A stretch of DNA of 64,000 nt from an uncultured Planctomycetaceae bacterium (GTDB taxonomy: Bacteria > Planctomycetota > Phycisphaerae > SM23-33): contig CAYRVX010000003.1 in assembly GCA_964427875.1 (NCBI GenBank), positions 46,910 to 110,909 on the forward strand. The letters are read 5' to 3'. The position numbers and the translations under genes were made by a program. Every line of letters starts with the position of its first letter. The first letter of the stretch is position 1. A model generated the notes under the pieces. It saw nothing but the letters and a program-made list of their open reading frames with translations. It searched no databases and was not told the DNA's origin. Below are positions 22,775 through 42,262 of the stretch, piece by piece.

Positions 22775-22806
22775 GATCAGCCCTCATTTCACCGGCCGTC
22801 GCGTAT

Positions 22807-25149
22807 CTACAGCCACAGCTTCATCCGGACCCAGTTGACCAGCCGGCGAGTCCAGATGTACCCGTAGCTCCGCCAATCGATGTCGATCTTGCCGACCCCC
22901 TCCATGCCCGGGCGGAGGATCTGGCGCGTCGCCGCCAGCCGGACCCGGACCTTGAAGACGTTCTCCTGCTCGACCACCTCGGCCACCGGATTAATCCGCT
23001 CGACGGTGAAGGCGATGCGTTCCTCCGGCAGGGCCGTGGTGGCCAGCTTGCCGGTGAGCTCCCTGTTCTCCCGCCGGGCCCTCTCCAGGGCGAGCTGGAC
23101 GTCGCCGATGAGGTCCTCCCGCACGGACAGCTCGCCTCGAAGGTCGGCGAGCGAGGCGATCTCAAACAGGACGTCGCCGGTCTTGACCGGCGCGCCGAGC
23201 TGGCGCTGGAGGTCGCCGGAGACGACATACCCGTCGATGGGCGAGACGAGCACGGCCTGGGCGATCCGGTGTTCGAGCAGCTTGATTCGCGCGGCGACCT
23301 GTTCGGCCTGGGCGCGGGCGATCTGGCTCTCGGCCCGCTTGTCTTCCCGCATGGCGGCGTCCGCCTGCTTGAGGTATGCCAGCTTCTCGGCCTCGGCCGA
23401 CATCAACTGGAGCCTGAGGTCCGCCGTCTCGAGCGTCCCCAGGACGGTCGGGCCCGGCGAGATCCTGCCGCGGAAGGCCGCGGCCAGGAGCGAGCGGTTC
23501 AGCTCCACCAGCCGGACGCCGCGCAGCGTGCCGGCCTCCAGCGCCGCCAGGAGGTCCTTGCGGCGCTCGGTCAGCTTGACATGCCGCCACGCGTCGGCGC
23601 TGTAGAACGTTCGCGTCGCCAGCAGCGCGTTCAGGTCGGCGAGCACGGCGGCGCGGGTGGCCTCGTCGATGCCCGCGATGGCGAGCTTGACCGCCTCGTT
23701 CGGGTCGACGGGCGCCGCCGATTCCACGGCCCGGCGAGTCTCTTCGCTCAGCAGCGACCAGACGTGCTTGCCGACGGAAGGCGCCTCGGCCGCCGCCCGG
23801 GCGCGGATCCCGGTCAGCAGGCCGGGCCAGTCCGAAACGTGGTGGTCCTCCAGAAGCCAGGACGGCTCGTCCGTCTTCGCGCCGCTGACCATGTCGCCCG
23901 GGAGGACGTACGCCCGCTTGAGGTAACCCTCGAACGGGGTGGGCACGACCTGCTGCGTGGTGGCCTCGAGCACGAAAGACGCCTCGGCGCGGTACTTCCC
24001 CTTGGCCAGGATGAGGAACAGGATCAGCGCGCAGATGGCGATGCCGGCGACCTTGATCCAGGTGTGTTTGGGTCCCAGTATGGTGGCGAGGCCGCTTCTT
24101 GCGGCCGCGGCGGCGCGGGCGCCGAACCAGCGGTCCTGTTTGTGGAGGCCCGCCAGCCGGGGGGTGCACAGGTCGCAGGCCAGCCGAAGCGACTCCACCT
24201 CATCGAACGCGAACGGCTCCTCGGCGAGACGTTCAAGCGTCAGCACGGCGGCGACGTCCTGGTCCCGCCGCAGCGGGAGGCCCAGAATCGCCGTCGGGCC
24301 GTGCTTCTTGGAAAGCTCTCTCGTGGCGCGGTTGACGAACGTTGTGCCCTGCGGAGCCGGACACAAGACCTCCACGTCCTGGTCCAGGGTCTCTTCCATC
24401 GCCGCCTCGATGTCCTGAACGAGCTGCATCTTGCGGCTGAACTTCTCGGTGTGGCTCATGGCCTTCAGATGGACGTACCGCCCCTTGAGGAAGCCCAGCG
24501 AGACCCGGTCGCAGTGCCAGCGGCTGGAGACCTCGTTGCACATGGCCATGGCCGCCCCCTTGAACCGGTCCTGCTCGTTGACGGCGGCGGTCGTCTCCAT
24601 GGCCAGCCGCAGGCGCATGAGGTCTCCCTGGCGCTGCTGAAGCGTCAGCCGCATCTCGTAAAGGCTCAGGAGGCTGACGGTCAGTTCCAGCCGCTGCTGC
24701 GTGGCGGCGAGCACGGCCGAGTCACTGCTGGCGACGACAAAGGTCGCCAGCCCCAGCACGCCGCTGCCGCCTCGCAGCGGGACCATGACCAGGTGCCTGC
24801 TGGCGGGCTGGCCGTACAGGTCGTCCGGCCCGTGGACGGGCTTGATGGTGGTCTTGCTCCCCGCGACGACGGCCGGTGCGGATTCAGCCGACTGGGCCAG
24901 CCAGACCGGCGCGGTCGAGCCGGGGGCCGGCTGGGGGTACACCGCCAGGATCTCCACTTGCTGATCGGCGCCGATCCGGAGAATCGCGCCGCCGTTGGCG
25001 GCGGCCAGGTGGCACTGAACGGCCAGCAGATTGACGAGGAACTGCTCCGGCGGGCCGTCGAATCGGCTAAGCCTCTCGATCATCTCGACCATCGTGGGCC
25101 GCTGCTGATCGGAGGATTCGTCGGAAACTCGAGCGGGATTGATGGTCAT
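22807..25149 (-). CDS. GAF-domain(s) + TM + HlyD-family membrane-fusion protein
   Basis: Two cytoplasmic GAF-like regions in ~1-400 aa. A TM helix IKVAGIAICALILFLILA. Then HlyD-like coiled coil/barrel: VSPIDGYVVSGDL, GDVLFEIASL. Confidence 0.7.
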   Translation of the reverse strand: MTINPARVSDESSDQQRPTMVEMIERLSRFDGPPEQFLVNLLAVQCHLAAANGGAILRIGADQQVEILAVYPQPAPGSTAPVWLAQSAESAPAVVAGSKTTIKPVHGPDDLYGQPASRHLVMVPLRGGSGVLGLATFVVASSDSAVLAATQQRLELTVSLLSLYEMRLTLQQRQGDLMRLRLAMETTAAVNEQDRFKGAAMAMCNEVSSRWHCDRVSLGFLKGRYVHLKAMSHTEKFSRKMQLVQDIEAAMEETLDQDVEVLCPAPQGTTFVNRATRELSKKHGPTAILGLPLRRDQDVAAVLTLERLAEEPFAFDEVESLRLACDLCTPRLAGLHKQDRWFGARAAAAARSGLATILGPKHTWIKVAGIAICALILFLILAKGKYRAEASFVLEATTQQVVPTPFEGYLKRAYVLPGDMVSGAKTDEPSWLLEDHHVSDWPGLLTGIRARAAAEAPSVGKHVWSLLSEETRRAVESAAPVDPNEAVKLAIAGIDEATRAAVLADLNALLATRTFYSADAWRHVKLTERRKDLLAALEAGTLRGVRLVELNRSLLAAAFRGRISPGPTVLGTLETADLRLQLMSAEAEKLAYLKQADAAMREDKRAESQIARAQAEQVAARIKLLEHRIAQAVLVSPIDGYVVSGDLQRQLGAPVKTGDVLFEIASLADLRGELSVREDLIGDVQLALERARRENRELTGKLATTALPEERIAFTVERINPVAEVVEQENVFKVRVRLAATRQILRPGMEGVGKIDIDWRSYGYIWTRRLVNWVRMKLWL

Positions 25150-25160
25150 CTGCTGCTATC

Positions 25161-26075
25161 TCATCTTGTCGGCCGCGCCGCGACCTCCCCGGCCTTCGAG
25201 CCGCCGGGCGAAGCCGTCCTCTTCCCGCCGGGAAAGCTGACGTACACGCGCTCGCCCGCCGGCCTGCCGGTGGAATTCGGCGCCTCGACCCGGACCGTCA
25301 GGGTGCCGCTGGCAGCGTCGGCGACGGCGACAATGTGGGCGATCCTCGCATCCACCAGCAGCGGACGGCTGACGTCATCCGTCTCAAACTCCACGACGGC
25401 CTTGCCGCCCTTCTTCAGACGGCGGGCCCGGCCGAGCGGAACGGGAACGTCGACCCAGAGCGGATCGATCTTGACCACGCGAATGACCCGCTCCAGTGCA
25501 TCGACCGACTCGCCTTCCTCCACCAGCCCCTGCGCCAGCGGCTTGCCCGGCCCGGGGAGGGGACGCTCCACCACCCCGTCGATGGGGCTCTTGAGCCGCA
25601 TGCGGGCATGCTGGATGCACGCCTCGCGGTACTTCCGCTGGTCCTGCTTGCGCTGAAACTTGGCCAGGTCCAGCGAGAGCTCGGAGATCTTCACCTCGAG
25701 GACGGCGTGATCGACCTCCATCTTGGTGGCCGCTCCGTTATCGAACGCCCATTCTTTCTGTTTGAGGTCGACTCTTTTCTGGGCGAGTTGGGCTTCGGCG
25801 GCCTTGACGCGGGTCTCGTCTTCGGCCTGGGCCTTTAGCTGTTCGAGCTGCGCCAACTCGGCTTCGTCGTCGAGCCGGATGAGCTCCTGGCCGGCTTTGA
25901 CCTCGTCGCCCTCTTTGACGAGCACCTTGGCGACGCGGCCGGGGCGAATGAACGATAGGGTCGCGTCGCTGCTGGGCTTGGTGAAGGCCTCAATCCGGTC
26001 CTGCCCCCAGAGGCTCGGGCAGGCGCCCAGCGCCACAAGCACAAGACTCAACACGGGGTTCCTTCTCGCTGTCAT
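25161..26075 (-). CDS. HlyD / efflux-adaptor (biotin-lipoyl-like) family protein with signal peptide
   Basis: MTARRNPVLSLVLVALGAC signal. A lipoyl-like KAGQELIRLD, a coiled-coil, and KSPIDGVV. 304 aa. First gene of the 4-gene operon. Confidence 0.7.
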   Translation of the reverse strand: MTARRNPVLSLVLVALGACPSLWGQDRIEAFTKPSSDATLSFIRPGRVAKVLVKEGDEVKAGQELIRLDDEAELAQLEQLKAQAEDETRVKAAEAQLAQKRVDLKQKEWAFDNGAATKMEVDHAVLEVKISELSLDLAKFQRKQDQRKYREACIQHARMRLKSPIDGVVERPLPGPGKPLAQGLVEEGESVDALERVIRVVKIDPLWVDVPVPLGRARRLKKGGKAVVEFETDDVSRPLLVDARIAHIVAVADAASGTLTVRVEAPNSTGRPAGERVYVSFPGGKRTASPGGSKAGEVAARPTR

Positions 26076-26273: not shown

Positions 26274-26303
26274 CTTGACGTCTTTCCGCACCGCACGGCA
26301 TAC
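26274..26303 (+). promoter_or_regulatory. Possible sigma70-type promoter for the sigma54-activator gene
   Basis: TTGACG (26274-26279), an 18-nt spacer, then CATACT (26298-26303). This lies ~45 nt upstream of ATG 26350. Sequence-only guess. Confidence 0.25.
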
Positions 26304-26349
26304 TGACCTGCCGCACGCCGCAAACTCCGCTGCTTCCAGGAATGGCGAG

Positions 26350-27876
26350 ATGATGGTGTCGATCAAACACTTGCCGCCGGAGGCGCTGTCGGCCCTGGTG
26401 GACGCTTCGGCGGCGATCAACTCCGCCCTGGGTCTCGACGAGACGCTGGCGGCGATTGCGCGCGCGGCCGCGTCGGTGATGCGGGCCGAGGCTTCCAGCG
26501 TTATTGTCCTGGACGAGACCCGCGGCAAGCAGGTGTTCCGGGCGGCCGTCGGTGACCGCGCCGATCAGCTCCAGGGCCTGGCCTACGATCGGGCTCTGGG
26601 CATCTCCGGCAAGGTGCTGGTGAGCGGGGAGGCCGAGATCGTTAACGACGTCTCCAAGGAGCGGTCCCATTACCACGAGATCGACGCGCTGGTGGCGTTC
26701 GAGACCCGCAGCCTCATTGCCGCCCCCCTGATCAACAAGGGCCGGACCCTCGGCGTCGTCGAGGTGCTGAACCCGGTGCAGTCCGAGCTGTTCGCCGAAG
26801 AGGACAGGCAGTTGTGCAAGGTCTTTGCCAACCTCGCGGCCATCGCGATGGCCAACGCACAGCTCTACGACCGCATCCAGCGCGAGAACGACCAACTGAA
26901 GCAGACCTACCAGCCGGCCGAGGAGATCGTCGGCATCTCCGCGGGAATGGAGAACGTCAGGAACCTGATCCGCCGGGTCTCGCGCTCGTCGGCCACCGTC
27001 CTGCTGCTGGGCGAGACGGGCACCGGCAAGGAGATCGCCGCCAGGACGGTCCACGCCGAGTCCGACCGGGGGGGCAAGCCCTTCGTGGCCATCAACTGCG
27101 CGGCCCTGCCGGAGACGCTCCTGGAAAGCGAGCTCTTCGGACACGAGGCGGGGGCGTTCACCGGAGCGGTGGAACGAAAGCTCGGCCGCTTCGAGCTGGC
27201 CGAGGGAGGCACGCTGTTCCTCGACGAGATCGCCGAGGTGGCCCCGAGCATCCAGGTGACGTTGCTTCGGGCCCTCCAGGAGAAGGAGATTGTCCGGGTC
27301 GGCGGCACGGAGACGATCGGGTGCGACGTGCGGATCGTCGCGGCGACCAACCGCGACCTCGCCGAGGAGATGAGGGCCCACAGGTTCCGAGAGGACTTGT
27401 ACTACCGGCTGAACGTCTTTCCGATCGAGATCCCCCCCCTCCGGGAACGGAGAGAGGACATCCCGCTGCTGGTGGACCACTTCATCCGTCACGTGGCGTC
27501 CGAGATGAAGATGCCCGTGCCGATTCTCTCCCCCGAGGCCATGACGGCACTGACGCAGTACGATTATCCCGGGAACATCCGGGAGTTGCAGAACATCCTG
27601 GAGCGGGCGTGCCTGCTGTGCTGCCGGATGGACGGCGCCTGGCCGCGGCCCCAGCCGATCGGGCCGGAGCACCTCCCGAGGGAGTTGGCCGGCGAGATCC
27701 AGCCGGGTGCCCCCGGCGAGTCGGCCCTGGCGGCCTCCGAGAAGGGCATGATCGTAAAGGCCCTCCGCGAGAACGCCTGGAACCAGACCAAGGCGGCCAG
27801 GGCCCTCGGCATTACCCGCGACAACATCCGCTACCGGATCCGCAAGTACAAGATACAGCTCCCCCAAAAGGGCTGA
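26350..27876 (+). CDS. Sigma-54-dependent transcriptional activator (GAF sensor + AAA+ sigma54-interaction + Fis-type HTH)
   Basis: GETGTGKE Walker A, the GAFTGA sigma54-contact motif, ELFGHE, and a C-terminal HTH ([22 protein letters not shown]). An N-terminal GAF domain. Start at MMVSIKHL. Confidence 0.88.
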
Positions 27877-28225
27877 GCGCGTCCTGCCTGCGGGCACGTC
27901 TGCCACGATGGCCCCCGACGACAGATCGTAAAGTCTTTGCTGTAAGTAGCCTGACCTGATTCCTGTCCCGGGCGCCCGGCCCCCTTGCGATTCGCTCGTC
28001 GCTCCCTATCTCCTTGCCCGCGGCTGATTTGAATCGTACTGTTGCTTGTGGCAGCAAGCCGGGCTCCGCGTTACGAAGGCCGGGGTCCTCCGGAGCTTCT
28101 CTCTGAGGCGCCTCAAGAAGCGCCCCCATTGCACCTGCGTGGCGGATCCAGTGTGGATTCCCCGTATTTCGTGCTTTCATCAAGACTTGGCGTTTGGTGC
28201 ACGCATACGCCCCAGGAGTGACCAA

Positions 28226-31200
28226 GTGAGCAATCTGAACTGGCAGCCGCCGCTGTTCGAGCAAATGGAGCCCCGTTTGCTGCTCAGCGCTTCACCGGTG
28301 CCGGAGGAGATCGACCTTCCGGCCTTCAGTGAGCAGTGCGTCACGGGCGGCCTCGACGTCGGCGAATCGCAGATGTACGTCTTCACCGCGGCGGCCAGCG
28401 GGTACGTCTACATGAACATGGGGGCCGCCGAAGGCAGCGGGGTCGATTCCTACCTGGAGGCCTTCAACTCCGGCCTGCGCAGGATCGCCCGGAACAACAA
28501 CGCCAGCAGGTACACTCAGGACAGCCGGATCCGCCTGCGCGTTAGCACGGGGCGCACGTACTACGTCCGCGCGAGGGGCGCCGCAGGAACCGATGGCGAC
28601 TACGAGCTGACGCTCACCAGCCGGCCGTACGACGACTACGGCAACACCGCCGAGGCGGCCAGGGCCCTGCGGGTCCGCCGGAGCGGCTCGACGTCGGCTC
28701 GCGGCAGGATCAACTGCGTCGGCGACACGGACTGGCTGTCGTACACGGCCCGCGACGACGGCCTGGTGCGTGTACGGATGCTCGCCTACGGCCGAGGTAA
28801 CAAGCTGGTCGGCTCGCTCGGCGTCTACGACGCCGCCGGCAACCTCATCACCAGCCAGGTCGCAGAGGAGAGCCACTGGTTCGAGCTGAGCTTCTCGGCG
28901 CTCAAGGGGCAGACGTATTACCTGGAGGCCTCCGGCGGGGAGAACACCACGGGCAGATACCTGGTCAAGGTGCTGCCGATGATCCTTCAGGAGTTCATCG
29001 ACGCAGAGGAGGTGGACCTTCCTGCCTTCAGCGAGCAGTCCGTCACGGGCGGCCTCGACGTCGGCGGGACCCAGATGTACAAGTTCACCGCGACGGCCAG
29101 CGGGTACGTCTACCTGAACATGAAGGCCGCCGAAGGCAGCGAGATCGACTCCTATCTGGAGGTCTTCAACCCCGGCCAGCGGAGGATCGCCCGGAACAGC
29201 AACGCCAACAGGTACACTCAGGACAGCCGTATCCGCCTCCGCGTTCGCGCGGGGCGCACGTACTACGTCCGCGCGAGGGCCGCCGGAGGGACCGAGGGCG
29301 ACTACGAGCTGACGCTCACCAGCCGGCCGTACGACGACTACGGCAACACCGCCGAGGCGGCCAGGGCCCTGCGGGTCCGCCGGAACGGCTCGACGGCGGC
29401 GCGGGGCAGGATCAACTGCATCGGCGACACGGACTACTTCTCGTACACCGCGCGGGGCAGCGGCCTGGTGCAGGTGCAGATGATCGCCTACGGCCGATGG
29501 AACAAGCTGTCCGGCATGCTCAACGTCTACGACGCCGCCGGCGACATGATCGCCAGCGATCACGGCGGCGTGGGCGGCACGTCCGCCCTGAGCTTTTCGG
29601 CGGTTAAGGGACAGACGTACTACATGGCGGCCTCCAGCGACGACAACAGCACGGGCAGATACCTGATGAAGGTGCTGCCGATAATCCCGCAGGAGTTCAT
29701 CGACGCGGAGGAGGTGGACGTCCCGGCCTATGGCGAGGAAACCGCCGCCGGCGCCCTCGACGTCGGCGGGACCAAGATGTACAAGTTCACCGCGGCGACC
29801 AGCGCGTATCTCTATCTGGACATGGCCGCCGCCGACGGAAGCGCGATCGACTCCTACCTGGAGGTCTTCAACTCCGCCCGGCGCAGGATCGCCCGGAACA
29901 ACAACGCCAGCAGGTACAATCGGGACAGCCGGGTCCGCATCCGCGTTCGGGCCGGCCAGACCTACTACGTCCGCGCCAGGGCCGCCCGGGGAACCGAGGG
30001 CGACTACGAGCTGACCTTCACGAGCCGGCCCAACGACGACGCGGGCAACGACATCGATCACGCCGCGTACCTTCAGCTCGAAAGCGACGGCTCCCGCCAG
30101 GCCCACGGGAAGGTCAACTATGCCGGCGACATCGACGTGCTGGAGATCGTCGCCCCCGTGACCGGCGAGATGACCGTGACGGCTGCGGCGCCCGGCGGGG
30201 ACGGCAGCATCACGCCGAGGCTCCGGGCCGATGACTCCACTGGCGAGCAACTGGTGATCGACGAAGACGGCGACGCCGCCTGCACCGTCACGTTCGGCGT
30301 GGTCGAGGGCGAGACGTACTACCTGAGGATCGCCAGCCTGGACGACAACACGGGCCGGTACGAGCTGATGGTGTCGACCGACACGGACGTCGATCCGGAC
30401 CCGGCCCCCGACCCCGACCCCGACCCGGACCCGGTTCCGCCCGACGATCCCACGCCGGGCGAGCTCGTCACGGGATGGATCAGCGAGGAGCCGGGCGGCT
30501 ACCGGCTGATCGTCGCCGGGACCGACAGCAGCGACATCATCACGCTGAGCGTCAGCGGCTCGGTGACGACGCTCACCTACGCCAGCGGCTCACTCGACTT
30601 CGCCGGCGTCTTCGACGACATCTCGATCTACGGCTTCGGCGGCGACGACGTGATCCGCATGGACTACTCGATCGCCGGCTCGGGCATCGTCTACGCCGGC
30701 GAGGGCAACGACACGGTATACGACAACAGCCTCGGCGCCGCAGGCGTGTACGGCGGGGCGGGCGACGACCTGCTGATCAGCCTCGGCGGCGGCGTGGACA
30801 GCCTCTGGGGCCAGGCGGGCTGCGACAGCTTCTGGGTGGACATGGGCGACTCGCTCGGCGACGCCGACTCCGCCGAGTACGACGCGACGGCCGTCCACCG
30901 AATCACTCAGTTCTATCAGCCCTACTCCGCGGTCCCCGGCTCTGCGGATTACGTCTCGATGGAGATCGCCGGGCAGAACTTCCGCGACCCCACACCCACC
31001 AGCTACGGGCGAGCGTGGGTGAACTTCGCGAGCAACCCGCTCTTTGCCGACGGGCCGGAACACAACGACATCCGCCAGGGCTCGGTAGGCGACTGCTACT
31101 TCCTGGCGTGCCTGGCCAGCATGTCCGACAGCGACCCGAACGTGATCCGCCAGATGGTGACGGCCCTGGGTGACGGGACGTACGCGGTGCGGTTCTTCCG

Positions 31201-31714
31201 CGGCGGTCAAGCCTCCTACCTCCGACTCGACGCCGACCTGCCCGTCTACTCCGGCAGCAGCCTCAGCTACGCCAAGCTGACGCCGGACGGCGAGACCTGG
31301 GTGGCGATCGTCGAGAAGGCCTACTGCCATTTCCGGTACGGCCAGAACTCCTACGCCTCCATCAGCGGCGGGTGGATGAGCACCGTCTTCCAGGAGATGA
31401 CCAACCGGCCCACCACCACCATGTGGACGGGCGGGTCGCAGGCGTCCCTGGCGAGCTTCATCATCTCCGCCCTCGACAGCGGGCACGCGGCCACCCTCGG
31501 AAGCTACGGTAACGCCCCCTCGCCGATCGTCGGATCGCACGCGTACATGCTCAAGTCGATCGAGTTCGTCGAGGGCGAGGCGATCGTGACGGTCTACAAT
31601 CCCTGGGGAGTGGACGGAAAGACCTACGACAGCAACTACAGCGACGGCCTGTTGAGGCTCGACCTGTCGCAGGTGCAGGCTTGCTTCTCGGCCATCGTCA
31701 TCAGCCTGGCATAG
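28226..31714 (+). CDS. Giant secreted protein: 3 tandem units of paired PPC (pre-peptidase C-terminal)-like domains + Asp/Pro linker + RTX-type Ca-binding repeats + calpain-like (C2) cysteine protease domain
   Basis: GTG start with RBS AGGAG 7 nt upstream. The N-terminus carries PPLFEQMEPRLLLSA. Three ~236-aa repeats each hold the PPC-like signature GDTDW/YxSYTA...YDAAGN...GQTYY. A linker reads PDPAPDPDPDPDP. Gly-Asp repeats GFGGDDVIRMD / GEGNDTV / GGAGDDLL. Calpain motifs QGSVGDCYFLACLAS (Cys), SHAY (His), NPWG (Asn). Confidence 0.78.
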   Translation: MSNLNWQPPLFEQMEPRLLLSASPVPEEIDLPAFSEQCVTGGLDVGESQMYVFTAAASGYVYMNMGAAEGSGVDSYLEAFNSGLRRIARNNNASRYTQDSRIRLRVSTGRTYYVRARGAAGTDGDYELTLTSRPYDDYGNTAEAARALRVRRSGSTSARGRINCVGDTDWLSYTARDDGLVRVRMLAYGRGNKLVGSLGVYDAAGNLITSQVAEESHWFELSFSALKGQTYYLEASGGENTTGRYLVKVLPMILQEFIDAEEVDLPAFSEQSVTGGLDVGGTQMYKFTATASGYVYLNMKAAEGSEIDSYLEVFNPGQRRIARNSNANRYTQDSRIRLRVRAGRTYYVRARAAGGTEGDYELTLTSRPYDDYGNTAEAARALRVRRNGSTAARGRINCIGDTDYFSYTARGSGLVQVQMIAYGRWNKLSGMLNVYDAAGDMIASDHGGVGGTSALSFSAVKGQTYYMAASSDDNSTGRYLMKVLPIIPQEFIDAEEVDVPAYGEETAAGALDVGGTKMYKFTAATSAYLYLDMAAADGSAIDSYLEVFNSARRRIARNNNASRYNRDSRVRIRVRAGQTYYVRARAARGTEGDYELTFTSRPNDDAGNDIDHAAYLQLESDGSRQAHGKVNYAGDIDVLEIVAPVTGEMTVTAAAPGGDGSITPRLRADDSTGEQLVIDEDGDAACTVTFGVVEGETYYLRIASLDDNTGRYELMVSTDTDVDPDPAPDPDPDPDPVPPDDPTPGELVTGWISEEPGGYRLIVAGTDSSDIITLSVSGSVTTLTYASGSLDFAGVFDDISIYGFGGDDVIRMDYSIAGSGIVYAGEGNDTVYDNSLGAAGVYGGAGDDLLISLGGGVDSLWGQAGCDSFWVDMGDSLGDADSAEYDATAVHRITQFYQPYSAVPGSADYVSMEIAGQNFRDPTPTSYGRAWVNFASNPLFADGPEHNDIRQGSVGDCYFLACLASMSDSDPNVIRQMVTALGDGTYAVRFFRGGQASYLRLDADLPVYSGSSLSYAKLTPDGETWVAIVEKAYCHFRYGQNSYASISGGWMSTVFQEMTNRPTTTMWTGGSQASLASFIISALDSGHAATLGSYGNAPSPIVGSHAYMLKSIEFVEGEAIVTVYNPWGVDGKTYDSNYSDGLLRLDLSQVQACFSAIVISLA
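28290..30410 (+). repeat. Three tandem ~708-bp intragenic DNA repeats (high nucleotide identity) encoding the PPC-like domain pairs
   Basis: Near-identical strings recur at ~28320, ~29020 and ~29725 (ccttcagcgagcagtccgtcacgggcggcctcgacgtcggcgg...). The protein repeats share >70% identity. Confidence 0.7.
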
Positions 31715-31904: not shown

Positions 31905-34900
31905 GTGCGACGGATTGCTGTGATCTGCGCGGGGGCCATGCTGGGCTCGTGGGCCCTGGCGTCGGCCGCTGAAAGGCCCGGACGCGACGACGTGGTCCGC
32001 GCGCTGCTCAAGCGCTCCCGGCTGCTCGAGGATGTCCGCTTCACCGTCCCCGGGAGTCTGTATCGGGAGTACCTCCGCATAGCGTCGGTCGGCGAGGCGA
32101 TGTTCCCGGCGCCCGTGGCGAGCATCGCCGGGAACGGGCGATACCACCTGGCGCTCGATGCAGCCGGCAGGCCCGCGCTCGTTGCGACGGTGGCCCTTCG
32201 GGTCTTCAAGCCGCGGCGATGCCGGAACCTCCCCGTTCTCACGGCCGAGTGGGCGTGGGAGAAGGTCGCGGTGAACGGCGCCCCGGCCTCTCTTGCCGCG
32301 AGAAAGGGGTGGCTGCGCTTCACCCCGAGGAAGGCGGGCCGGTACGTCGTCTCCGGACAGATCGGACTCAGCAAGGGCCGCGCCGACGGCGGCAAGGTGT
32401 CCTTCGGCATTCCCAGAACGGTCCGGACGTCTTTGCGGTTCGACTCGCCCGGCCGATGGCGGGTGGCCGTGTCCGGCTCGCCGCACAGGCTCCTGGGGCA
32501 GGCGCCCGGCGGCACGCACGGCGAGCTGGCCGTCACGCCGCGAGAGCGCATCGAGGTGGAGTACACCCGTCCGGTCGAGCTGCCCCCCCGGCCGCCGCGG
32601 TACGAGCTGCGCGGCGCGACGGCGTGGAACCTGGACGCCGGGCGCCAGCAGATCGCCGCGAGATTGCGCGTCCGCATCCTCGGCGGGCGGACGGATCGGC
32701 TCATCCTGCAACTGCCCGCCTCCGCCCGACGCGTCACGATCACCGGCCCGGACGTTCGCGAGGCACAGGTTTCGCCCGCCGGTGCGGCGATCTTCCTGCG
32801 AGGGACCATCGCCGGGCAGACGCGTCTGACAGTGGGCTACGAACTGCCCCTCGGCGCGGGCAGCATCCAGCGCCTCGGGCGCCCGGAGCTGGCGGACGGC
32901 CGCTGGTCCGGAGGGACGCTGGCCGTCACCAACACCGCCGGGGCCAGCGAAATCCTGCCCCATGCCGTCCGCGGGCTGCGGGAGATACACCCGGAGGACC
33001 TGCCCGCCGAGGCGAGGGGCATGCTCGCCGGCAAGTGCGTGCTGGCCTACCAGATCACCTCCCGCTTCTTCTCCGCCGCCGTGGACGTCGTGGACCTGGG
33101 GGAGTTCGCCCTTCGCGAGTCCATCGCCGACCTCGCGCATTACCGGCTCCTGCTTCGCCCCGACGGGTCCGTTCTGTGCAAGGTGGACTACGAGATCCGC
33201 AACCGCAGCCGGCAGTTCCTGAGGCTCCACCTGCCTCGCGGCGCCCGCGTGCTGGTGGCCCGCGTGAACGACAAGCCCAGGCCCCTGACGCCCCTGCTGG
33301 ACGAGCCGGGCGCCCACCTCCTGCCGCTGGTTCGCTCGCAGGCCTCGGTCAAGGGGCTGGTGAGCTTCCCGGTTCAGATCGTCGTATTGATGCGCGGCAA
33401 GGCGCTGCGGCGAGAGGGCCTGGCGGCCGTGCCGCTGCCGCGAATCGACCTGCCGATCGCCTACGGCTGGTGCGAGCTGCACGTCCCGCGCGACATGGCG
33501 GTTGACCGGTGGGCCGGGCCGATGCAGCACGTCGAGCGATACTCCAGCGAGACGGCCGTCGCCAGCCTCACCTACGGCCGCGCCGAACTGGCCGAGGGAT
33601 ACAAACTGGAGGACCGCCCGACTGTCGAGGCGGTCCCCGAAGGCCAGCCGCAGCGCAGACCGAAGCGCCCCCCCCCGCCCATAGCGCTGGCCAAGCCGCC
33701 GGAACTGAAGCCGACGAGGCCCACAGAAGAACCGGCCAGACCGTTCGGACCCGCCACGCAGCCGGCGGCCACGGAGATCCTTGCCACGAAGGTGACGGTC
33801 CCCGAAGGCGGCACGCTTATCCTCGGCGGGCAGGTGATGCTGTCACGCAACTACTACCGGGCCGGCAGGGACTACTACGAGCGAGGCGACTACGACAAGG
33901 CCGCAATCTCCCTGGAGAACACCCTTCGCATGGCCCCGAAGAGTGCCGAGGCCGCCAATGCCGCCCGACTGCTGGCCAACATCAAGGCGGTCCGGGGCAA
34001 GCTGGCCGCGAAGAGCCGCCAGGAGAAGGCCCTCACGCGGCAGGTGAAGAAGGAGATCTCCGGCCTGAACGTCAAGCTGGAGCAGCAGCAGCGTGAGCTG
34101 ATCGAGCAGGCCGGCGAGGCGGTCCGTGGCGGCCGGCGCGATGAGGCGGCCGCCGGCTATCAGGCCGCCGTCTCGCTCGGCGAGCAGCTCATCGCTCGCG
34201 GCGCCGACGAGAGGGAGCAGTCCGTTCGTCTCCGCGACGCCAAGGAAGAGCTCGACAGGCTCCAGAAGCAGAAGCAGGCAAGAGCGACCCAACTGCGGAC
34301 ACGATACGAGGTCCTCAAGACGGCGGGGCAGTACGGAGAGGCGCTGAAGATCGGCAAGGCGCTCCAGGAGGTCTACGAGGACAAAGGGGAACAGCAGCGC
34401 CTTCGTGGCGAGCTCGAGGAGCTGGCCGCCACGACGGTGCGGGACAAGGCGCGGCATGGGGCCACCATGGCCGTCCAGGCGGCGACCGAGGTGTTCACAC
34501 TCGAACATGCCGAGGCTCGATCAGTCGCCCGCGTGCTGAGCGAGATGTTTGCCGGACGAGGGCAAAGGGGATCAGCAGCGCGTTCGTCGCGCGGGCCGAG
34601 CACTGGGCGCGATCAGAGGGTGACCATCACCGCGGATGAGACGGCCAACGCGTTGGTTCTCACCGCCCCACCGGGTCAGCGGGACAAGATCGTGGAGCTG
34701 CTCCAGCAGTTGGACGCCGCCGACTCCGACGCCAACACCGAGCGGATCACGGCCGAAGGCACATCGGGCTTCCTCCCGGCCGCCCCTCGGAACATCCCGG
34801 CCCTCAAGCTTCACGCGAGCGAGCTGCGCGAGCAGAAGAAGCACGCCGATGCCCTTGCCGTGGCCGGGCACGTTCTCCGGATGGCCCCGGCCGACGACTG

Positions 34901-36149
34901 GGCCAAGGGAGAAGTCAAGGAGCTTCAGCGAATCCTGCGATCGAAAGACGGGAGGCTAGCGCAACTCGGCTTGTTAGACTCGGCCTCCTTGCGCACTCCC
35001 GCACGCCGGCCGGACCTCAGGGCCGTCACGAAGACGTACGACGTTCGCGACTTGGTCTTCGGCGGGGGCGAAGCCGGCCGGCCGAGCGCGGGGGCAGGTG
35101 ACGACAAGCCCCGGGAGAAGGTGGCCGAGGACCTGGTCAGGACGATCCGCGGGGCCCTGGGCAGGGAAGTCGTCCTCGGCGACGCTGGTATCCAGATCTC
35201 CAACGGCAGGCTTGTCGTGAGCGCGACCGGCGGTGGCCAGAAGCTCGCGGCCGACCTGTTCACGAGGCTTCGGGACATCCGCGGGCCGCAGGTCGAGGTG
35301 GGCGGCAACATCGCCCAGCAGAGGGCGGCCGGACTCGTCCGGGCCCAACGCGACGTCAACGGCGACGGTATCGACGCGCCGGTGGCGGCCGCGTACCGCC
35401 CGAAGCAGCTCGCCGAGCAGCGGGAGTTCCAGGAGTTCCTGAGGCGAAACTACGATTGGGAGGTCGAGGCCCGACGGGCGGACGGCGGCTGGAAGTATGG
35501 CCGGTCCATGTCGAGCTATCTGCCGGCCCTGGACAGCTCGGGGCAGGCCCGGCGGTCGAGGGATCCGGCCAAGGTCACGCACGAGATAGCGGGCAAGTTG
35601 CTGATGAATGTGGGCCAGAAAGTGGCGGTCAACAGCACGAACATCTCTCTGGGTTCCGCGGCCGCCAACGCGTTGGGCATCCACTTTGCCGAGGGCCGCA
35701 ACGACATCCGCTACGCCGTCGTGGACGAGGCCCAGTTGCGGACGCTGCGCGAGATGGAGGCCCGGCGGCCGGGCGAGGGCAGGCCGGTCGCCGCCAACCC
35801 GCGGTTCCAGGAGACCATCGTCGGCACCGACGCGCTGCTGGCCAGCGGGCAGGTCGCCAACGTCACCTTCGCCGGCGACCGCGGCAACACGATCGACATC
35901 TACAGCAACCCGATCGCCCTGACGCACGAGAAGTACGTTCTGATCGACAACCACGACTACCTCACGGCCGTGCAGACCGGCCAGATGCAGCACTGGACCC
36001 AGCGGGCCAAGCCCCTCCGGTTCGCGGAGGTCCCTCAGGACATCGAGGTGCCCCGCGTGGGACGGCTGGTGAAGCTCGAGAAGACACTGATCAAACCGGC
36101 GGACGCACTGACGATCCGCGCCGAGTACACCTGGACTGGAAAGGAGTAG
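31905..36149 (+). CDS. Giant (1414 aa) secreted protein: N-terminal unknown beta-rich domains (paralogous to the next gene), Pro-rich linker, TPR-like helical region and a secretin-N-like (type II/III secretion 'short') domain
   Basis: Signal MRRIAVICAGAMLGSWALASAA. A YEIRNRSRQFLRLHLP...LLPLVRS...FPVQIV block shared with the 36154 gene. TPR-like RNYYRAGRDYYERGDYDKAAISLENTLRMAP. A secretin-N motif VTITADETANALVLTAPPGQRDKIVELLQQLD. No secretin beta-barrel C-domain seen. Confidence 0.6.
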   Translation: MRRIAVICAGAMLGSWALASAAERPGRDDVVRALLKRSRLLEDVRFTVPGSLYREYLRIASVGEAMFPAPVASIAGNGRYHLALDAAGRPALVATVALRVFKPRRCRNLPVLTAEWAWEKVAVNGAPASLAARKGWLRFTPRKAGRYVVSGQIGLSKGRADGGKVSFGIPRTVRTSLRFDSPGRWRVAVSGSPHRLLGQAPGGTHGELAVTPRERIEVEYTRPVELPPRPPRYELRGATAWNLDAGRQQIAARLRVRILGGRTDRLILQLPASARRVTITGPDVREAQVSPAGAAIFLRGTIAGQTRLTVGYELPLGAGSIQRLGRPELADGRWSGGTLAVTNTAGASEILPHAVRGLREIHPEDLPAEARGMLAGKCVLAYQITSRFFSAAVDVVDLGEFALRESIADLAHYRLLLRPDGSVLCKVDYEIRNRSRQFLRLHLPRGARVLVARVNDKPRPLTPLLDEPGAHLLPLVRSQASVKGLVSFPVQIVVLMRGKALRREGLAAVPLPRIDLPIAYGWCELHVPRDMAVDRWAGPMQHVERYSSETAVASLTYGRAELAEGYKLEDRPTVEAVPEGQPQRRPKRPPPPIALAKPPELKPTRPTEEPARPFGPATQPAATEILATKVTVPEGGTLILGGQVMLSRNYYRAGRDYYERGDYDKAAISLENTLRMAPKSAEAANAARLLANIKAVRGKLAAKSRQEKALTRQVKKEISGLNVKLEQQQRELIEQAGEAVRGGRRDEAAAGYQAAVSLGEQLIARGADEREQSVRLRDAKEELDRLQKQKQARATQLRTRYEVLKTAGQYGEALKIGKALQEVYEDKGEQQRLRGELEELAATTVRDKARHGATMAVQAATEVFTLEHAEARSVARVLSEMFAGRGQRGSAARSSRGPSTGRDQRVTITADETANALVLTAPPGQRDKIVELLQQLDAADSDANTERITAEGTSGFLPAAPRNIPALKLHASELREQKKHADALAVAGHVLRMAPADDWAKGEVKELQRILRSKDGRLAQLGLLDSASLRTPARRPDLRAVTKTYDVRDLVFGGGEAGRPSAGAGDDKPREKVAEDLVRTIRGALGREVVLGDAGIQISNGRLVVSATGGGQKLAADLFTRLRDIRGPQVEVGGNIAQQRAAGLVRAQRDVNGDGIDAPVAAAYRPKQLAEQREFQEFLRRNYDWEVEARRADGGWKYGRSMSSYLPALDSSGQARRSRDPAKVTHEIAGKLLMNVGQKVAVNSTNISLGSAAANALGIHFAEGRNDIRYAVVDEAQLRTLREMEARRPGEGRPVAANPRFQETIVGTDALLASGQVANVTFAGDRGNTIDIYSNPIALTHEKYVLIDNHDYLTAVQTGQMQHWTQRAKPLRFAEVPQDIEVPRVGRLVKLEKTLIKPADALTIRAEYTWTGKE

Positions 36150-36153
36150 AACG

Positions 36154-38154
36154 ATGAAACGAACGGTAGTGGCGGTAGCGGCTGTCCTGATCGCCGCGGG
36201 GGCCTGCGGGCCCGCGCTCGCCGAGGCGCCGAAGCTCGGCGAGGGCAAGGGGCAGGTCACGTTGAGCTGGGACGAGTTCGTGAGGATCACCGGCTACGAC
36301 CCCGCGAAGAAGGGCTCACAGGTGCTCACCATCCCCTGGGCGCAGGTGGAGGACCTCACCGGGCTGAAGGTGGACGGCGCCATGAAGGGCGCCACCGTGG
36401 ACCTCAAATGGGGCGAGTTCCGCGCCCTGCTCGAGTGGTCGATCAAGCGGAAGGACGAAGTGCCTCCGCCGGCCGACTACATCGTCACCTCCAGCCGGTA
36501 CACCGGCAGCCTCTCCGATGACGGCGCCGCCTTCAAGCTCGCCGCGAAGATCAACATCCTCCGCAAGAAGGGCTGGAAGAAGGTCCCCATCCTCCCGGTC
36601 ACCGTCGCCCTGACCAAGACCGAGCTTCCCCAGGGGGTCTTCCTCAACGCCACGGGGACGAACTACGAGCTGCTCACCGACCAGTCGGGACCCATCGACG
36701 TGAGCATCGAGTTCTCCGTGGCCGTCAACAAGAGCGCCGGCATCAACCAGGTTGGCTTCAAGCGAGTATTGGCCGGCTCCAGCGTGCTGGACCTGACCAT
36801 CGCGCGCGAAGAGGTGGACGTGAAGGTGGCCGACTCGCAGTCGCTGGTGAGCAAGACCGTGAACAAGCAGACGCAGGTGATCGCGGCGGTGCCGTCGAAT
36901 GCGGCCGTCGCCATCTCGTGGGAACGCGCGCTGCCCAAGGTGGCGGCCGCGCCGACGAAGCTCTACGCCGAGGTCGGCACGCTCGTGGCCGTGGCCGAGG
37001 GAATGCTCCTCTGCCAGGAGGTGGTCAACTACAACATCCTTCACACGGCGGTGCGCGAGTTGAACCTCCAGGTGCCCGCGGGCGCCAGCGTCCTGACGGC
37101 AAGCGGCTCGAACTTGCAGGACTGGCGCGTGGACAATGACGGCAAGCTCCAGGTGGTGCTCAAGGCCGAGGTCATCGGCAGCTACACGCTGCGGATCACC
37201 TACGAGCAGGCGAGCAAGGCGGGGGCCGAGACGCCCGTGATCCACCCGGTCGGCGTCGAGAGGCAGCGCGGGTACGTCGGCGTGGTGGCCGTCGCCAACG
37301 TGGAGATCGCCGCCGGAAAGGTGGACGCCGCCACCGCCATCGACGTGCGCCAACTGCCCGCCGACATCGTCTCCATGACCAATCAGCCGATCCTGCTGGC
37401 CTTCCGCTACCTGGGCGAGCAGTTCAAGATCCCGCTGACCATCAAGAAGCACGCGGAGGTCGGCGTCCTCGTGACGATCGTCGACAGCGGCGTCTTCACG
37501 GCCATGCAGCTCGCCGACGGGCGGAGGATCACCAAGGTCATCTACTCCGTCCGCAACAACCGGAACCAGTTCCTTCGGCTGAAGATGCCCGAGGCCTCGG
37601 AGATCTGGTCGGTCTCGGTCAGCGGCAACACGGTCTCCCCGGCCAAGGACGAGGCCGGCAACGTCCTGGTGCCCCTGGTGCGGAGCTCGGGCGGCGCCCA
37701 GGAGCTGGCGGCCTTCCCCGTCGAGATCGTCTACGTGGAGACGCCCAAGGCCCAGGTGCCCGAGCGAGGCCAGATCCACGTCGAGCTGCCCGCCTGTAGC
37801 GTTCCCGTCGTGCACGTGATGTACAGCTACTACGCGCCGGCGGAGGGCAAGTACACGGTCGGCTGGGGCGCGAGCGGCTTCTCCGGGCCGCTTCAGGTGG
37901 TCGAGGAGTTCACATCGCTGGCAACCGGCGCCGGCCGGCAGATCGTCCGCCTCGACGCCACCAAGCAGGCCAAGCAGATGCAGAAGGCCTTCGACGCCCG
38001 CGTGGACGCCAAGGCGAAGGCCGCAGGGGCCACGCCTATCCGCGTCCGCCTGCCCATCAACGGCAAGCTGTTCAAGCTGGAGAAGATCCTCGTCCTGCCG
38101 AACGACAGGCTGTACTTCGACCTCCAGTACAGGGACTGGAAGGTCCCGAAATAG
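36154..38154 (+). CDS. Secreted 666-aa protein, paralogue of the N-terminal ~550 aa of the preceding giant protein (unnamed domain family)
   Basis: Signal MKRTVVAVAAVLIAAGACGPALA. It shares the YSVRNNRNQFLRLKMP...VLVPLVRS...FPVEIVYVE block and upstream beta-strand pattern with the 31905 gene. It starts 5 bp after the 31905 gene's stop. Confidence 0.55.
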   Translation: MKRTVVAVAAVLIAAGACGPALAEAPKLGEGKGQVTLSWDEFVRITGYDPAKKGSQVLTIPWAQVEDLTGLKVDGAMKGATVDLKWGEFRALLEWSIKRKDEVPPPADYIVTSSRYTGSLSDDGAAFKLAAKINILRKKGWKKVPILPVTVALTKTELPQGVFLNATGTNYELLTDQSGPIDVSIEFSVAVNKSAGINQVGFKRVLAGSSVLDLTIAREEVDVKVADSQSLVSKTVNKQTQVIAAVPSNAAVAISWERALPKVAAAPTKLYAEVGTLVAVAEGMLLCQEVVNYNILHTAVRELNLQVPAGASVLTASGSNLQDWRVDNDGKLQVVLKAEVIGSYTLRITYEQASKAGAETPVIHPVGVERQRGYVGVVAVANVEIAAGKVDAATAIDVRQLPADIVSMTNQPILLAFRYLGEQFKIPLTIKKHAEVGVLVTIVDSGVFTAMQLADGRRITKVIYSVRNNRNQFLRLKMPEASEIWSVSVSGNTVSPAKDEAGNVLVPLVRSSGGAQELAAFPVEIVYVETPKAQVPERGQIHVELPACSVPVVHVMYSYYAPAEGKYTVGWGASGFSGPLQVVEEFTSLATGAGRQIVRLDATKQAKQMQKAFDARVDAKAKAAGATPIRVRLPINGKLFKLEKILVLPNDRLYFDLQYRDWKVPK

Positions 38155-38453
38155 GGCATGGTTCAAACATGCGCAGCCGGTAGCCGAAGCGGCCAGGGCC
38201 TTGGCACATTTGTGAGCCCAAGATCCGAAGGTCGTTGCCGGCTGCCGGCTGCCGGCTGCGCTGGTCTCGTGGCGACCGGTCCGTTACCGCCGAGCCGACT
38301 GCAACCAAACACTGACCCCTGCTGAACCAACCCCGAATCACCCCCGGCAAAATCTTGCGCCCGCCCTCGTAAATGCCTATTTCACAGGTGTTTATAGACG
38401 CAATCGCCCAAAATGGCTTTGTTTCGTAAAAAGACTTATGCCGGACCATTCGC

Positions 38454-38498
38454 AGCCACAAAGGTCACAAAGGTCACAAAGGTCACAGAGGTCACGGG
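38454..38498 (+). repeat. Tandem 9-mer (aggtcacaa) x4-5
   Basis: gccacaaaggtcacaaaggtcacaaaggtcacagaggtcacgg. An inverted partial copy aagtgaccg lies at 38511-38519. Confidence 0.8.
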
Positions 38499-38542
38499 GT
38501 AGATAACTCAAAGTGACCGATTCGCCAGCTTCCCGGGAGGTG

Positions 38543-38732
38543 CTCGTTGACTCGTGAATTCGTTAACTCGTTGATTCGTCAAGAACTCCGCCCTGGCCAC
38601 TCGGCGGATTCGTTGCACGACCCATGGCAGCCGGCACAGCTTCTCAGTTGCCGAGCCAGCAAAGCAAAGCCCAACATCTCTTCGGGCAATATCTTTCCAG
38701 TTAACGAGTTAACGAATTAACGGATCAACGGG
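38543..38732 (+). repeat. Pair of ~28-bp inverted repeats (cgttgactcgtgaattcgttaactcgtt / aacgagttaacgaattaacggatcaacg) bracketing ~130 bp: a MITE-like or protein-binding element
   Basis: Arm 1 at 38543-38572. Arm 2 at 38703-38732, which is the reverse complement with 2-3 mismatches. The arms are built from cgtt(a/g)a(c/t)tcgtt sub-repeats. Confidence 0.6.
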
Positions 38733-39080
38733 CAACCCGTAAGCCAATCAGGATCGGTCAGTTTGAGTAGATAAGATATCGAAATGGCGTGCTTTTGCAA
38801 ACGCGCAACGGACAGAGTGTTCTCTCACGGCCCCGAGCGTTTCTGTCGTAACCGCCTGCAAAATCATAACCTTTGTGTTCTTTGTGCCCTCTGTGGCGAA
38901 CAATCCGCGTTTGGCTTCGTTTCGCGTTTTTCTTCTGATCCGCCGCCTTCCTTTTCCTTGTGATCACGATCCCCCCGTAGCAGGCATATACATCTCGCAG
39001 CCCTTTTTGCACAACGAAAATCGCCAGATTGCAGAAAAACTTCCGGCCGCGCCCGCCGGCAAGGGCGGGCGTAGGCTGAA

Positions 39081-39233
39081 GGTCGTAGGTCATAGGTCGT
39101 AGGTCGTAGGGCAGACCGTGGGACCGGATACCGTGGGGCCGTGGGACCGGATACCGTCGGACCGCAAGACCGTGCCACCGGATACCGTCAGACCGGCAAT
39201 CGTCCTCGTCGTCGTCCTCGTCCTCGTCCTCGG
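39081..39233 (+). repeat. Consecutive micro/minisatellite blocks: (ggtcgtag)x4, a ~23-bp unit (ccgtgggaccggataccgt) x3, and (cgtcct)x5
   Basis: Read directly: ggtcgtaggtcataggtcgtaggtcgtagg; gaccgtgggaccggataccgtggggccgtgggaccggataccgtcgg...ccgtgccaccggataccgt; cgtcctcgtcgtcgtcctcgtcctcgtcctcgg. Confidence 0.8.
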
Positions 39234-39246
39234 CCGTCTCTTCTCG

Positions 39247-39450
39247 GGGTTCCGAGTTCCGGCCTCCTCGGGGGCAGGCGGCCGTGCCGGCCGCCGTTAA
39301 ACGCTCCGCGCCTCCCTGCCCGGTAGGCAGCCTCCGGGTTCCGAGTTCCGAGTTCCGACCTCTTCGGGGCCAGGCGGCCGTGCCGGCCGCCGTTAAACGC
39401 TCCGCGCTCCGGGCTCCGGGTTCCGAGTTCCGCCTTCCCGGTTCCCGCTT
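39247..39450 (+). repeat. ~96-bp-period direct repeat (2 full + 1 partial copies), each with the perfect palindrome ggcggccg-tgc-cggccgcc and (gttccga)n
   Basis: Copies at 39247-39311 and 39337-39407 (gttccgagttccg.cctc.tcgggg.caggcggccgtgccggccgccgttaaacgctccgcgc). A partial copy sits at 39416-39450. Confidence 0.75.
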
Positions 39451-39454
39451 GCGA

Positions 39455-39500
39455 CTTCGTCATTCGTCATTCGTCATTCATCATTGATCATTCGGCATTG
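39455..39500 (+). repeat. Tandem heptamer (tcgtcat) x3 with degenerate copies (tcatcat, tgatcat, tcggcat)
   Basis: cttcgtcattcgtcattcgtcattcatcattgatcattcggcattg. Confidence 0.8.
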
Positions 39501-39739
39501 CTTCTCCCTTGCTTCCCCCGCCCCGCGCGGTATCCTGAATGAGACAAAAGGGCCTGCCGCTCACCGGGCGGCCGTCCGGGCAAAGCGGCAGGAACCAACG
39601 GGGCGGTGAGTGTGTCCCGCTCGCCATCATGAAAGCGTTATCTCGTTCATCCGTTCACTCGTTCACTCGCGGTCGCGGAGACGCCCGCGCAGGGCCGACG
39701 CGCTGATTCCGGGCACTCCTCGACCGTCGCCCCCGACTG

Positions 39740-42244: not shown

Positions 42245-42262
42245 GGGAACTCCCCGATCGGT

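Follow-up and report, generated by a model that had tools for sequence, protein, structure and literature searches.

A LEPR-XLL-headed calpain-like protease beside a secondary SecA locus in a planctomycete: a candidate cargo for a proposed export pathway

How proteins headed by the LEPR-XLL motif, often thousands of residues long and without normal signal peptides, leave the cells of PVC bacteria and others has been an open question since the first planctomycete genome, and the function of the secondary SecA/HlyD/M50 locus has been another since 2015. Studholme 2004, as cited in PMC8567305, had proposed that the equivalent motif on cell-surface proteins of Rhodopirellula baltica, RRLxxExLExRxLLA, serves as a new kind of export signal. 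A secretion-related role was proposed for the secondary SecA_DEAD locus in PMC4452313, which called its biological role "completely unknown" in 2015. We analysed a 64,000-nt stretch of DNA (the window) from an uncultured Planctomycetaceae bacterium (assembly GCA_964427875.1, contig CAYRVX010000003.1), in which both subjects meet: a gene of 1162 codons with a GTG start (28226-31714, + strand, stop codon included) encodes a LEPR-XLL motif, six PPC-like domains, a beta-roll and a calpain-like core, and lies beside such a locus. We propose, with a probability of roughly 0.55 and on the basis of genome context, that its product is a calcium-stabilised secreted calpain-like protease that is exported through the neighbouring secondary SecA machine by means of its LEPR-XLL leader. 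The wider proposal, for which we consider the odds to be even, is that LEPR-XLL is the targeting leader of a distinct and widespread export pathway, namely the secondary SecA locus, that moves large and giant surface proteins. Its parts would be a truncated SecA motor, an RRE-bearing M50-HlyD protein, a GAF-HlyD protein and a small HlyD protein, and its range would include Planctomycetota, Verrucomicrobiota, Desulfobacterota, Lentisphaerota, some Chlorobiota and others.

The N-terminus of the protease, LFEQMEPRLLLSA, matched the NCBIfam model NF012209 (LEPR-XLL) with 25.1 bits against a cut-off of 17, and the match covered residues 10-26 at the extreme N-terminus (LFEQMEPRLLLSASPVP; 28253-28303, +). 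In an alignment of 15 N-terminal regions (mean column identity 50%), the motif was the best-conserved stretch, with E12, E15, P16, R17, L18, L19 and S21 invariant. The per-residue confidence (pLDDT) of the AlphaFold model was below 50 at residues 14-22 and above 90 in the domains that follow; as modelled, LEPR-XLL is a linear motif and not a fold. No transmembrane segment or signal-peptide-like hydrophobic core was found in the protease. Specifically, the most hydrophobic 8-mer of the first 40 residues was LLLSASPV (mean Kyte-Doolittle value 1.8), preceded by E-P-R, and RR was absent, so that the N-terminus has neither the hydrophobic core of at least about 8 residues typical of Sec nor the twin arginine typical of Tat.

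Of 53 metagenomic homologues whose 5' end is complete, about 51 had the motif: 41 scored 12 bits or more with our own motif hidden Markov model (HMM), and about 10 more were evident variants. Among 143 representatives of the C-terminal module of the protease, 85 fitted a strict LEPR regular expression and many more were evident variants, the rest being mostly 5'-truncated. In five representatives (P0236, P0246, P0258, P0280 and P0285) an ordinary hydrophobic signal peptide replaced the motif, as would be expected if LEPR is an export signal. Elsewhere, the motif occurs on 52 proteins of T. immobilis, 20 of which were seen by proteomics and several of which fractionate with the sodium dodecyl sulfate (SDS)-soluble envelope (PMC8567305). 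It also heads giant Vibrio proteins (PMC10868602) and the 20,647- and 36,806-aa proteins of Chlorobium chlorochromatii (bioRxiv 10.64898/2026.03.19.712371).

The operon beside the protease gene runs divergently from it (18184-26075, −). According to domain annotation, its first gene encodes a small HlyD/biotin-lipoyl periplasmic adaptor (25161-26075, −), followed by a 780-aa GAF-transmembrane-HlyD adaptor (22807-25149, −) and an 866-aa fusion of a PqqD/RRE domain, an intramembrane M50 protease and an HlyD part (20174-22774, −) with HEFGH at residue 211, NANPLLRYDG at residue 311 and 4-6 transmembrane segments. The N-terminal 416 aa of this M50 protein matched daptide_HExxH (NF041824) with E=5.8e-48, at a score of 164 that is below the equivalog cut-off of 300. 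The last gene encodes a 671-aa secondary SecA_DEAD protein (18184-20199, −) with motor and preprotein cross-linking domains and no SecA_SW scaffold/wing. Directly upstream of the protease gene lies a gene for a GAF-AAA+-HTH sigma54-dependent activator (26275-27876, +), an order kept in the closest relatives only.

The M50 family is large (>7,000 matches; 57-72% identity among 14 aligned sequences). Eighty loci with the M50 protein were fetched from species genomes; by record titles they belong to Planctomycetota, Verrucomicrobiota, Desulfobacterota, Lentisphaerota, Spirochaetota, Elusimicrobiota and Nitrospirota, the taxon labels of metagenome-assembled genomes (MAGs) being unreliable. GAF-HlyD and SecA-like genes were found in 76 and 66 of these loci, respectively, and a calpain gene only in the closest relative. 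A motif scan of all open reading frames (ORFs) detected a LEPR-motif ORF in the flanks of 18 of the 80 loci. It was within 600 bp of the operon edge in 12 of the 18 and within 3.5 kb in six more, and the outer flank from 3.5 to 10 kb, comprising 47% of flank bases, held a LEPR ORF in none. The ORF lay right after the SecA-like gene (L012, L050, L059, L062, L063, L074 and L080) or right before the operon or divergent from it (L007, L043, L048, L055 and L083). If placement were uniform, 12 of 18 in the nearest 10.6% of flank bases would have a binomial P of 2e-8; from a background of 529 kb of calpain-gene flanks that hold two further LEPR ORFs, of which one belongs to an operon locus, 0.27 LEPR ORFs were expected near the operon and 12 were observed (Poisson P=3e-16). 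Both values overstate independence, the loci being related by phylogeny. In statistical terms, LEPR genes are associated with the operon. Moreover, 8 of 10 LEPR neighbours passed the cut-off of NF012209, an independent model, and their other domains were mutually unrelated (Golvesin_C/amidase/fn3/dockerin; CARDB with RTX; lipase-like; none). The original prediction had placed the gene directly downstream of a sigma54 activator and next to an HlyD/M50/SecA-like operon, which the domain annotation confirmed, and had called the protein a candidate cargo, an idea that gains support from the clustering of LEPR genes at operon edges in several phyla.

In some loci two LEPR genes lay side by side or a LEPR gene occupied the usual position of the SecA-like gene (L161, 3965-5929, −; L062, 14282-15100 and 15289-21198, +; L124, 3934-5070, +), which suggests multi-cargo clusters.

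The calpain gene itself adjoined the operon in 9 of 80 metagenome loci, in three arrangements. It was divergent from the operon and accompanied by the activator in the window, L004/L091, L005/L089 and L100, and co-directional and immediately upstream of the operon in L007, L094, L096, L101 and L103; the distant lineage L161 also showed calpain-operon adjacency. Therefore, the linkage has been kept through rearrangement. The close homologues L004 and L005 keep the operon and the activator, whereas the distant L001-L003 and L006 do not, and in assembly JAFGJE01 the calpain gene (L003) is non-adjacent, with the operon (L018) on another contig. Taken by itself, synteny centred on the calpain gene is weak evidence for cargo status. 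Synteny specific to the calpain gene was considered as the sole explanation of the operon link and rejected, because the operon family is huge and mostly without calpain.

What kind of protein would be exported? The C-terminal calpain-type (Peptidase_C2) core (30851-31711, +) matched PF00648 over aa 935-1141 with 82.5 bits (E=3.6e-23, cut-off 23.8). Its Gln951 (31076-31078), Cys957 (31094-31096), His1105 (31538-31540) and Asn1125 (31598-31600) were in register with Q109, C115, H272 and N296 of calpain-1, and all four were invariant in 19 homologues. In a Foldseek comparison, the model of the core (pLDDT 88.7) matched the calpain-1 core (7w7o and 1zcm) with a best E of 1.7e-15 and a target TM-score of 0.63 over 276-311 columns. 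No Calpain_III (C2L) or penta-EF-hand domain was found in the protease by Pfam scan. Judging from sequence and model, the protein is probably a cysteine endopeptidase of the calpain (C2) family that is stabilised by calcium and works outside the cell or on its surface.

Upstream of the core, three DNA copies spaced exactly 702 nt (234 aa) apart were 89% and 80% identical, and each encodes one A-type and one B-type beta-sandwich (residues 27-718). This period exceeds the longest one handled by Tandem Repeats Finder (500), and the repeat was recovered by a separate repeat search. All six domains are on the + strand and were detected by an HMM built from the B copies. A1 (aa 27-132, 28304-28621) was additionally supported by the DNA repeats, the AlphaFold model and a fold match, and B1 (aa 133-251, 28622-28978), which carries a G-x-I-x(3)-GDxD signature, by a domain profile and a fold match. 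A2 (aa 261-366, 29006-29323) matched PF04151 with 17.5 bits over profile positions 2-69 of 70, B2 (aa 367-485, 29324-29680) with 16.4 bits along with the domain profile, and A3 (aa 495-600, 29708-30025) with 18.1 bits along with the DNA repeats. B3 (aa 601-718, 30026-30379), also supported by the domain profile, was the most diverged copy. Identity was 66-81% among the A copies, 71% between B1 and B2, about 32% for B3, and about 25% between A and B. A profile of 41 such domains reached the collagen-binding (PPC) domains of ColG/ColH (5iku, E=7e-8; 3jqw, 7e-5), and the top fold match of the AlphaFold model (pLDDT 88) was the ColG tandem collagen-binding domain 5iku (E=1.7e-11). PF04151 is also in the precomputed domain list of the database protein P0001, which is 100% identical to the 1162-aa product, and homologues showed weak or faint PF04151 matches.

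The PPC array is followed by a Pro/Asp-rich linker (aa 719-745, 30380-30460, +), derived partly from a CCGGAC hexanucleotide array (30395-30434), and by a small beta-sandwich of five strands (aa 746-797, 30461-30616, +; pLDDT 91-96). A degenerate RTX-type beta-roll (aa 798-875, 30617-30850, +) then leads to the core. Its five GxGxD units (GFGGDD, AGEGND, GGAGDD, LGGGVD and GQAGCD) have family-invariant G and D residues, and the model showed eight short strands at a spacing of about 10 residues (pLDDT 93-96). All 17 of 17 homologous segments matched HemolysinCabind, with a best E of 5.6e-9, and the family profile reached Ca-bound beta-helix/RTX structures (3p4g, 7e-7; 2qua, 8e-5; also CyaA). 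PPC and beta-roll modules are typical of secreted proteins.

The architecture read earlier from the sequence thus stood up well. The planctomycete-type N-terminal motif passed its own model and was present in essentially every complete homologue, with seven residues invariant in 15 sequences where absence from homologues had been named as the contrary outcome. The C-terminal calpain-type catalytic set was upheld by profile score, alignment with calpain-1 and fold match; profiles back both the calpain and the PPC assignments, whose lack of profile support had been the other contrary outcome named. The three tandem PPC pairs and the RTX repeats were borne out by family profiles and predicted structure, the target itself being below the Pfam gathering threshold in both cases.

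How might the operon export such a protein? The LEPR-XLL leader would act as the targeting signal for the secondary SecA machine; in the cytoplasm, either the PqqD/RRE domain of the M50 protein or the SecA cross-linking domain, or both, would recognise it. The SecA-like ATPase would then push the chain, unfolded and with its N-terminus leading, through a complex that the M50 and GAF-HlyD proteins would form in the inner membrane, and the HlyD-type adaptors would reach across the periplasm to an outer-membrane channel whose gene lies elsewhere. The intramembrane M50 (site-2-type) protease would cut off the leader near ...LLLSA. Outside the cell, Ca2+ would fold the PPC domains and the beta-roll, the protease staying inactive until exported, and the PPC array might tether the enzyme to polymeric substrates. 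Both the adaptor and the sigma54 activator have GAF domains, which suggests control of the process by a small-molecule signal. In C. chlorochromatii, the horizontally acquired secA Cag_1676 falls in a co-expression cluster with the LEPRxLL giants Cag_663 and Cag_665, for which the authors proposed a different transporter (bioRxiv 10.64898/2026.03.19.712371). A secondary SecA is reported from one Chlorobi species in PMC4452313, whose authors also sometimes saw OEP genes near the locus. We found no paper that joins the LEPR-XLL motif to the secondary SecA locus; our literature coverage was incomplete and prior art is possible.

Several points weigh against this proposal, in addition to the relatedness of the loci mentioned above. 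The transport claims are read from gene order. The locus has no obvious protein-conducting channel or outer-membrane component, and 62 of the 80 operon loci had no LEPR gene in the flank read. No operon was near the calpain gene in 71 of the 80 metagenome loci, many of them short contigs, or in L001-L003 and L006, so that adjacency is facultative. A scan for sigma54 promoters (TGGCAC-N5-TTGCW, up to two mismatches) gave fewer matches than expected by chance and none in the 27877-28225 spacer. On single domains, PF04151 gave 16.4-18.1 bits for three of the six and nothing for the other three, against a cut-off of 25.9; HemolysinCabind (PF00353) on the protease's own copy gave 15.1 and 17.8 bits, against a cut-off of 23; and the full-length Pfam scan of the protease listed neither PPC nor RTX. 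In the alignment to calpain-1, the equivalent of D106 was present and that of E185 was Thr. Both residues are protease-core Ca2+ ligands of calpain-1; since only part of the core ligand set is kept, the calcium dependence of catalysis is uncertain.

In a first alternative, the same secreted protease is exported by a route unrelated to the operon (housekeeping Sec acting on an atypical signal, or another), and adjacency is inherited gene order in one Phycisphaerae-like clade. The distant homologues without an operon within 10 kb, the majority of operon loci without a LEPR neighbour, and the dozens of LEPR-type genes scattered in planctomycete chromosomes (52 in T. immobilis, PMC8567305) would all be accommodated by it. 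However, inherited order in one clade fits poorly with unrelated LEPR proteins at the operon edge in several phyla, at a density that falls steeply with distance, and with a calpain-operon adjacency that survives rearrangements of order and strand; moreover, SecYEG and signal peptidase I would find no hydrophobic core in the leader. We consider it unlikely, at perhaps one chance in a few, and the strongest competitor to export through the secondary SecA machine.

A second alternative keeps the operon as a possible transporter and takes LEPR as an uncleaved element that retains or anchors the N-terminus at the cell envelope, comparable to the module by which LapA-type adhesins are retained at their N-terminus. 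Such a role would suit the many LEPR proteins that are giant, adhesin-like and located at the surface (PMC10868602; bioRxiv 10.64898/2026.03.19.712371), as well as the T. immobilis LEPR proteins in the SDS-soluble envelope fraction (PMC8567305). The motif, however, has only about 17 residues and is predicted to be disordered, and so would offer no folded plug; it also heads enzymes of about 450 aa and is replaced in some homologues by an ordinary cleavable signal peptide. Its partner has an RRE and an active-looking M50 domain, an arrangement known from leader-peptide processing. Retention therefore appears doubtful to us, and clearly more so than an unrelated export route.

Classical type I secretion, C-terminus first through an ABC transporter, HlyD and TolC, is suggested by the RTX-like GGxGxD repeats and the adjoining HlyD-family genes, and some LEPR-XLL giants do carry C-terminal RTX/serralysin regions (PMC10868602; L050). 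Here, however, the beta-roll has an internal position, with 290 residues of the folded protease core after it, and in the model the C-terminus is a strand of the core fold, so that there is no free type I signal. The genes annotated from 13.9 to 47.3 kb included no ABC transporter, and the ATPase of the conserved locus is SecA-like. This route is quite improbable. A cytoplasmic or non-proteolytic protein (a pseudo-protease or adhesin scaffold), for which one could cite that the family is known here from sequence and that 29 of 267 calpain homologues lack active-site residues (Rawlings 2015, PMC4631099), is the least probable of all, given the invariance of the catalytic Gln/Cys/His/Asn throughout the family, the PPC and RTX modules, which are hallmarks of exported proteins, and the existence of homologues with signal peptides.

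Is such a protease rare? A word-indexed search returned 37 relatives; most came from Phycisphaerae MAGs, and their PPC pairs numbered from one to seven. An exhaustive profile search with the 417-aa C-terminal module (beta-roll and calpain core) gave 28,095 matches at E<=0.001 and 1,389 at E<=1e-30, and at least 150 matches covered the full length of the module at E<1e-91; many module homologues are only about 450 aa long, consisting of leader and module. Bacterial PPC~C2 and HemolysinCabind~C2 calpains were already catalogued by Rawlings 2015 (PMC4631099). The combination had been called unusual for bacteria in the original prediction, which did not hold in view of these precedents and of the >1,300 representatives at E<=1e-30: the protease belongs to a known kind, of which its architecture is a new variant, and it is not rare. 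The five homologues with signal peptides represent a natural leader swap on the beta-roll and calpain module. In addition, two giant proteins, P0241 (6902 aa) and P0275 (6523 aa), matched part of the calpain-core region of the module profile (positions 190-307) in 11 and 8 separate stretches, respectively, which suggests that they carry arrays of calpain-lobe-like repeats.

In the 67% GC window, real genes could be separated from shadow ORFs by third-position GC (GC3), and the open frame that contains the protease gene (28046-31714, +) had a GC3 of 0.91, the level expected for coding DNA here. GTG 28226 was accepted as the start because a Shine-Dalgarno sequence AGGAG (28214-28218, +), conserved in L004 and L005, lies 7 nt before it, the GAGGAG-N6-GTG arrangement is kept in these two homologous loci, and the motif then falls at its position in the homologues (residues 10-26). 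TTG 28046 was rejected as a start: it falls within a block of upstream DNA that is conserved, lacks a Shine-Dalgarno sequence and would shift the motif from its conserved N-terminal position. The block (GAATCGTAnnGTT..TGGCAnCAAGCCGGGC; 28031-28070, +) is about 40 nt long, lies about 190 nt upstream of the calpain start and is common to the window, L004 and L005, whose surrounding DNA is poorly alignable. It contains a sigma54-like TGGCA whose spacing to GC is non-canonical, with no GG-N10-GC, and as far as the sequence goes it is possibly a promoter or regulatory site. Inspection of both intergenic regions by eye found sigma54-like elements at non-canonical spacings only, and a GG-N10-GC scan of L005 was uninformative. 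Because no canonical −24/−12 promoter was found, sigma54 control of the protease gene is suggested by gene order only; on that basis, the neighbouring GAF-type activator probably controls expression in this clade. An Rfam scan of the window gave no matches.

Downstream of the protease gene lies a pair of genes (31905-38154, +) whose membership in the system is uncertain. The first encodes a protein of 1414 aa that has a signal peptide and a single Secretin_N domain (aa 861-939) but in which no secretin C-domain could be recognised, and the second a 666-aa protein without Pfam or NCBIfam matches. The pair adjoined calpain genes in 5 of the 80 metagenome loci (L004/L091, L088, L095, L099 and L120), all in the closest clade, and none of the 80 M50-centred loci had it; the two genes may supply an outer-membrane partner specific to this clade, or may be unrelated.

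Further out, an HtrA/DegP-type serine protease gene with PDZ (13878-15482, +), a glycerate kinase gene and an Orn/DAP/Arg decarboxylase gene are ordinary housekeeping genes that flank the SecA-like gene. No ORF of at least 150 aa was found in 38155-39739. In the region 39740-44320, GC3 was 0.69-0.71 compared with about 0.9 elsewhere; it contains a subtilase S8 gene (834 aa, −) and an AAA ATPase gene (329 aa, −), followed by an Mrr-type restriction endonuclease gene (43592-44320, +, GC3 0.87). The region has the look of an island gained by horizontal transfer, possibly one related to defence.

If export through the secondary SecA machine is correct, an orphan signal would be joined to an orphan machine, and a new secretion system would emerge that borrows from Sec, from type I secretion and from the leader processing of ribosomally synthesised and post-translationally modified peptides (RiPPs). 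One testable proposal would then answer both opening questions, and the 1162-aa enzyme beside the machine, with its assayable predicted activity, would be a convenient reporter cargo. The novel part would be the link from motif to machine, for which genome context is the basis. Meanwhile, a family of secreted bacterial calpain-like proteases should be useful for studies of calpain origins and for enzyme discovery.

Compared with known systems, the closest parallel to the operon is the locus described by Kamneva, Poudel & Ward 2015 (PMC4452313): the operon at 18184-26075 has exactly its gene set and architectures, including a SecA without SecA_SW. Substrates are not named in that paper, nor is the PqqD/RRE domain mentioned, whereas LEPR-XLL candidate substrates are linked to the locus here by gene neighbourhood. 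With RiPP processing by an RRE and a membrane M50 protease (NF041824; YydH/LiaK, NF058609), the M50 protein of the operon shares the PqqD domain, HExxH and NxxPxxxxDG; it differs in being fused to HlyD and partnered with a SecA-like ATPase, and its candidate clients are 400 to >2600 aa long rather than small peptides. The protease shares with the NF012209/R. baltica motif, which is found on proteins that are exported or surface-located and often giant, the motif itself, its N-terminal position and the taxonomic setting, but the basic RR-type n-region of many examples is missing.

The individual modules also have known counterparts. The ColG/ColH collagen-binding domains (5iku and 3jqw) gave the best profile and fold matches to the PPC-like domains and resemble them in their tandem jelly-rolls and in the GDxD Ca-site signature, which is present in the B-type copies; identity is only about 14%, and the A-type copies have no DxD signature. 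Nostoc Alr0369 (PPC~C2) and Gloeobacter Glr4140 (HemolysinCabind x8 ~ C2) have, like the protease, a C-terminal core with the Cys/His/Asn triad, PPC or RTX modules N-terminal to it, no C2L or penta-EF-hand domain and a presumed extracellular location. Unlike the homologues in Rawlings 2015, the protease joins six PPC domains in A/B pairs, a beta-roll and the core under a LEPR-XLL leader, and it comes from a Phycisphaerae-like lineage of the Planctomycetota, a phylum from which a single homologue was known in 2015.

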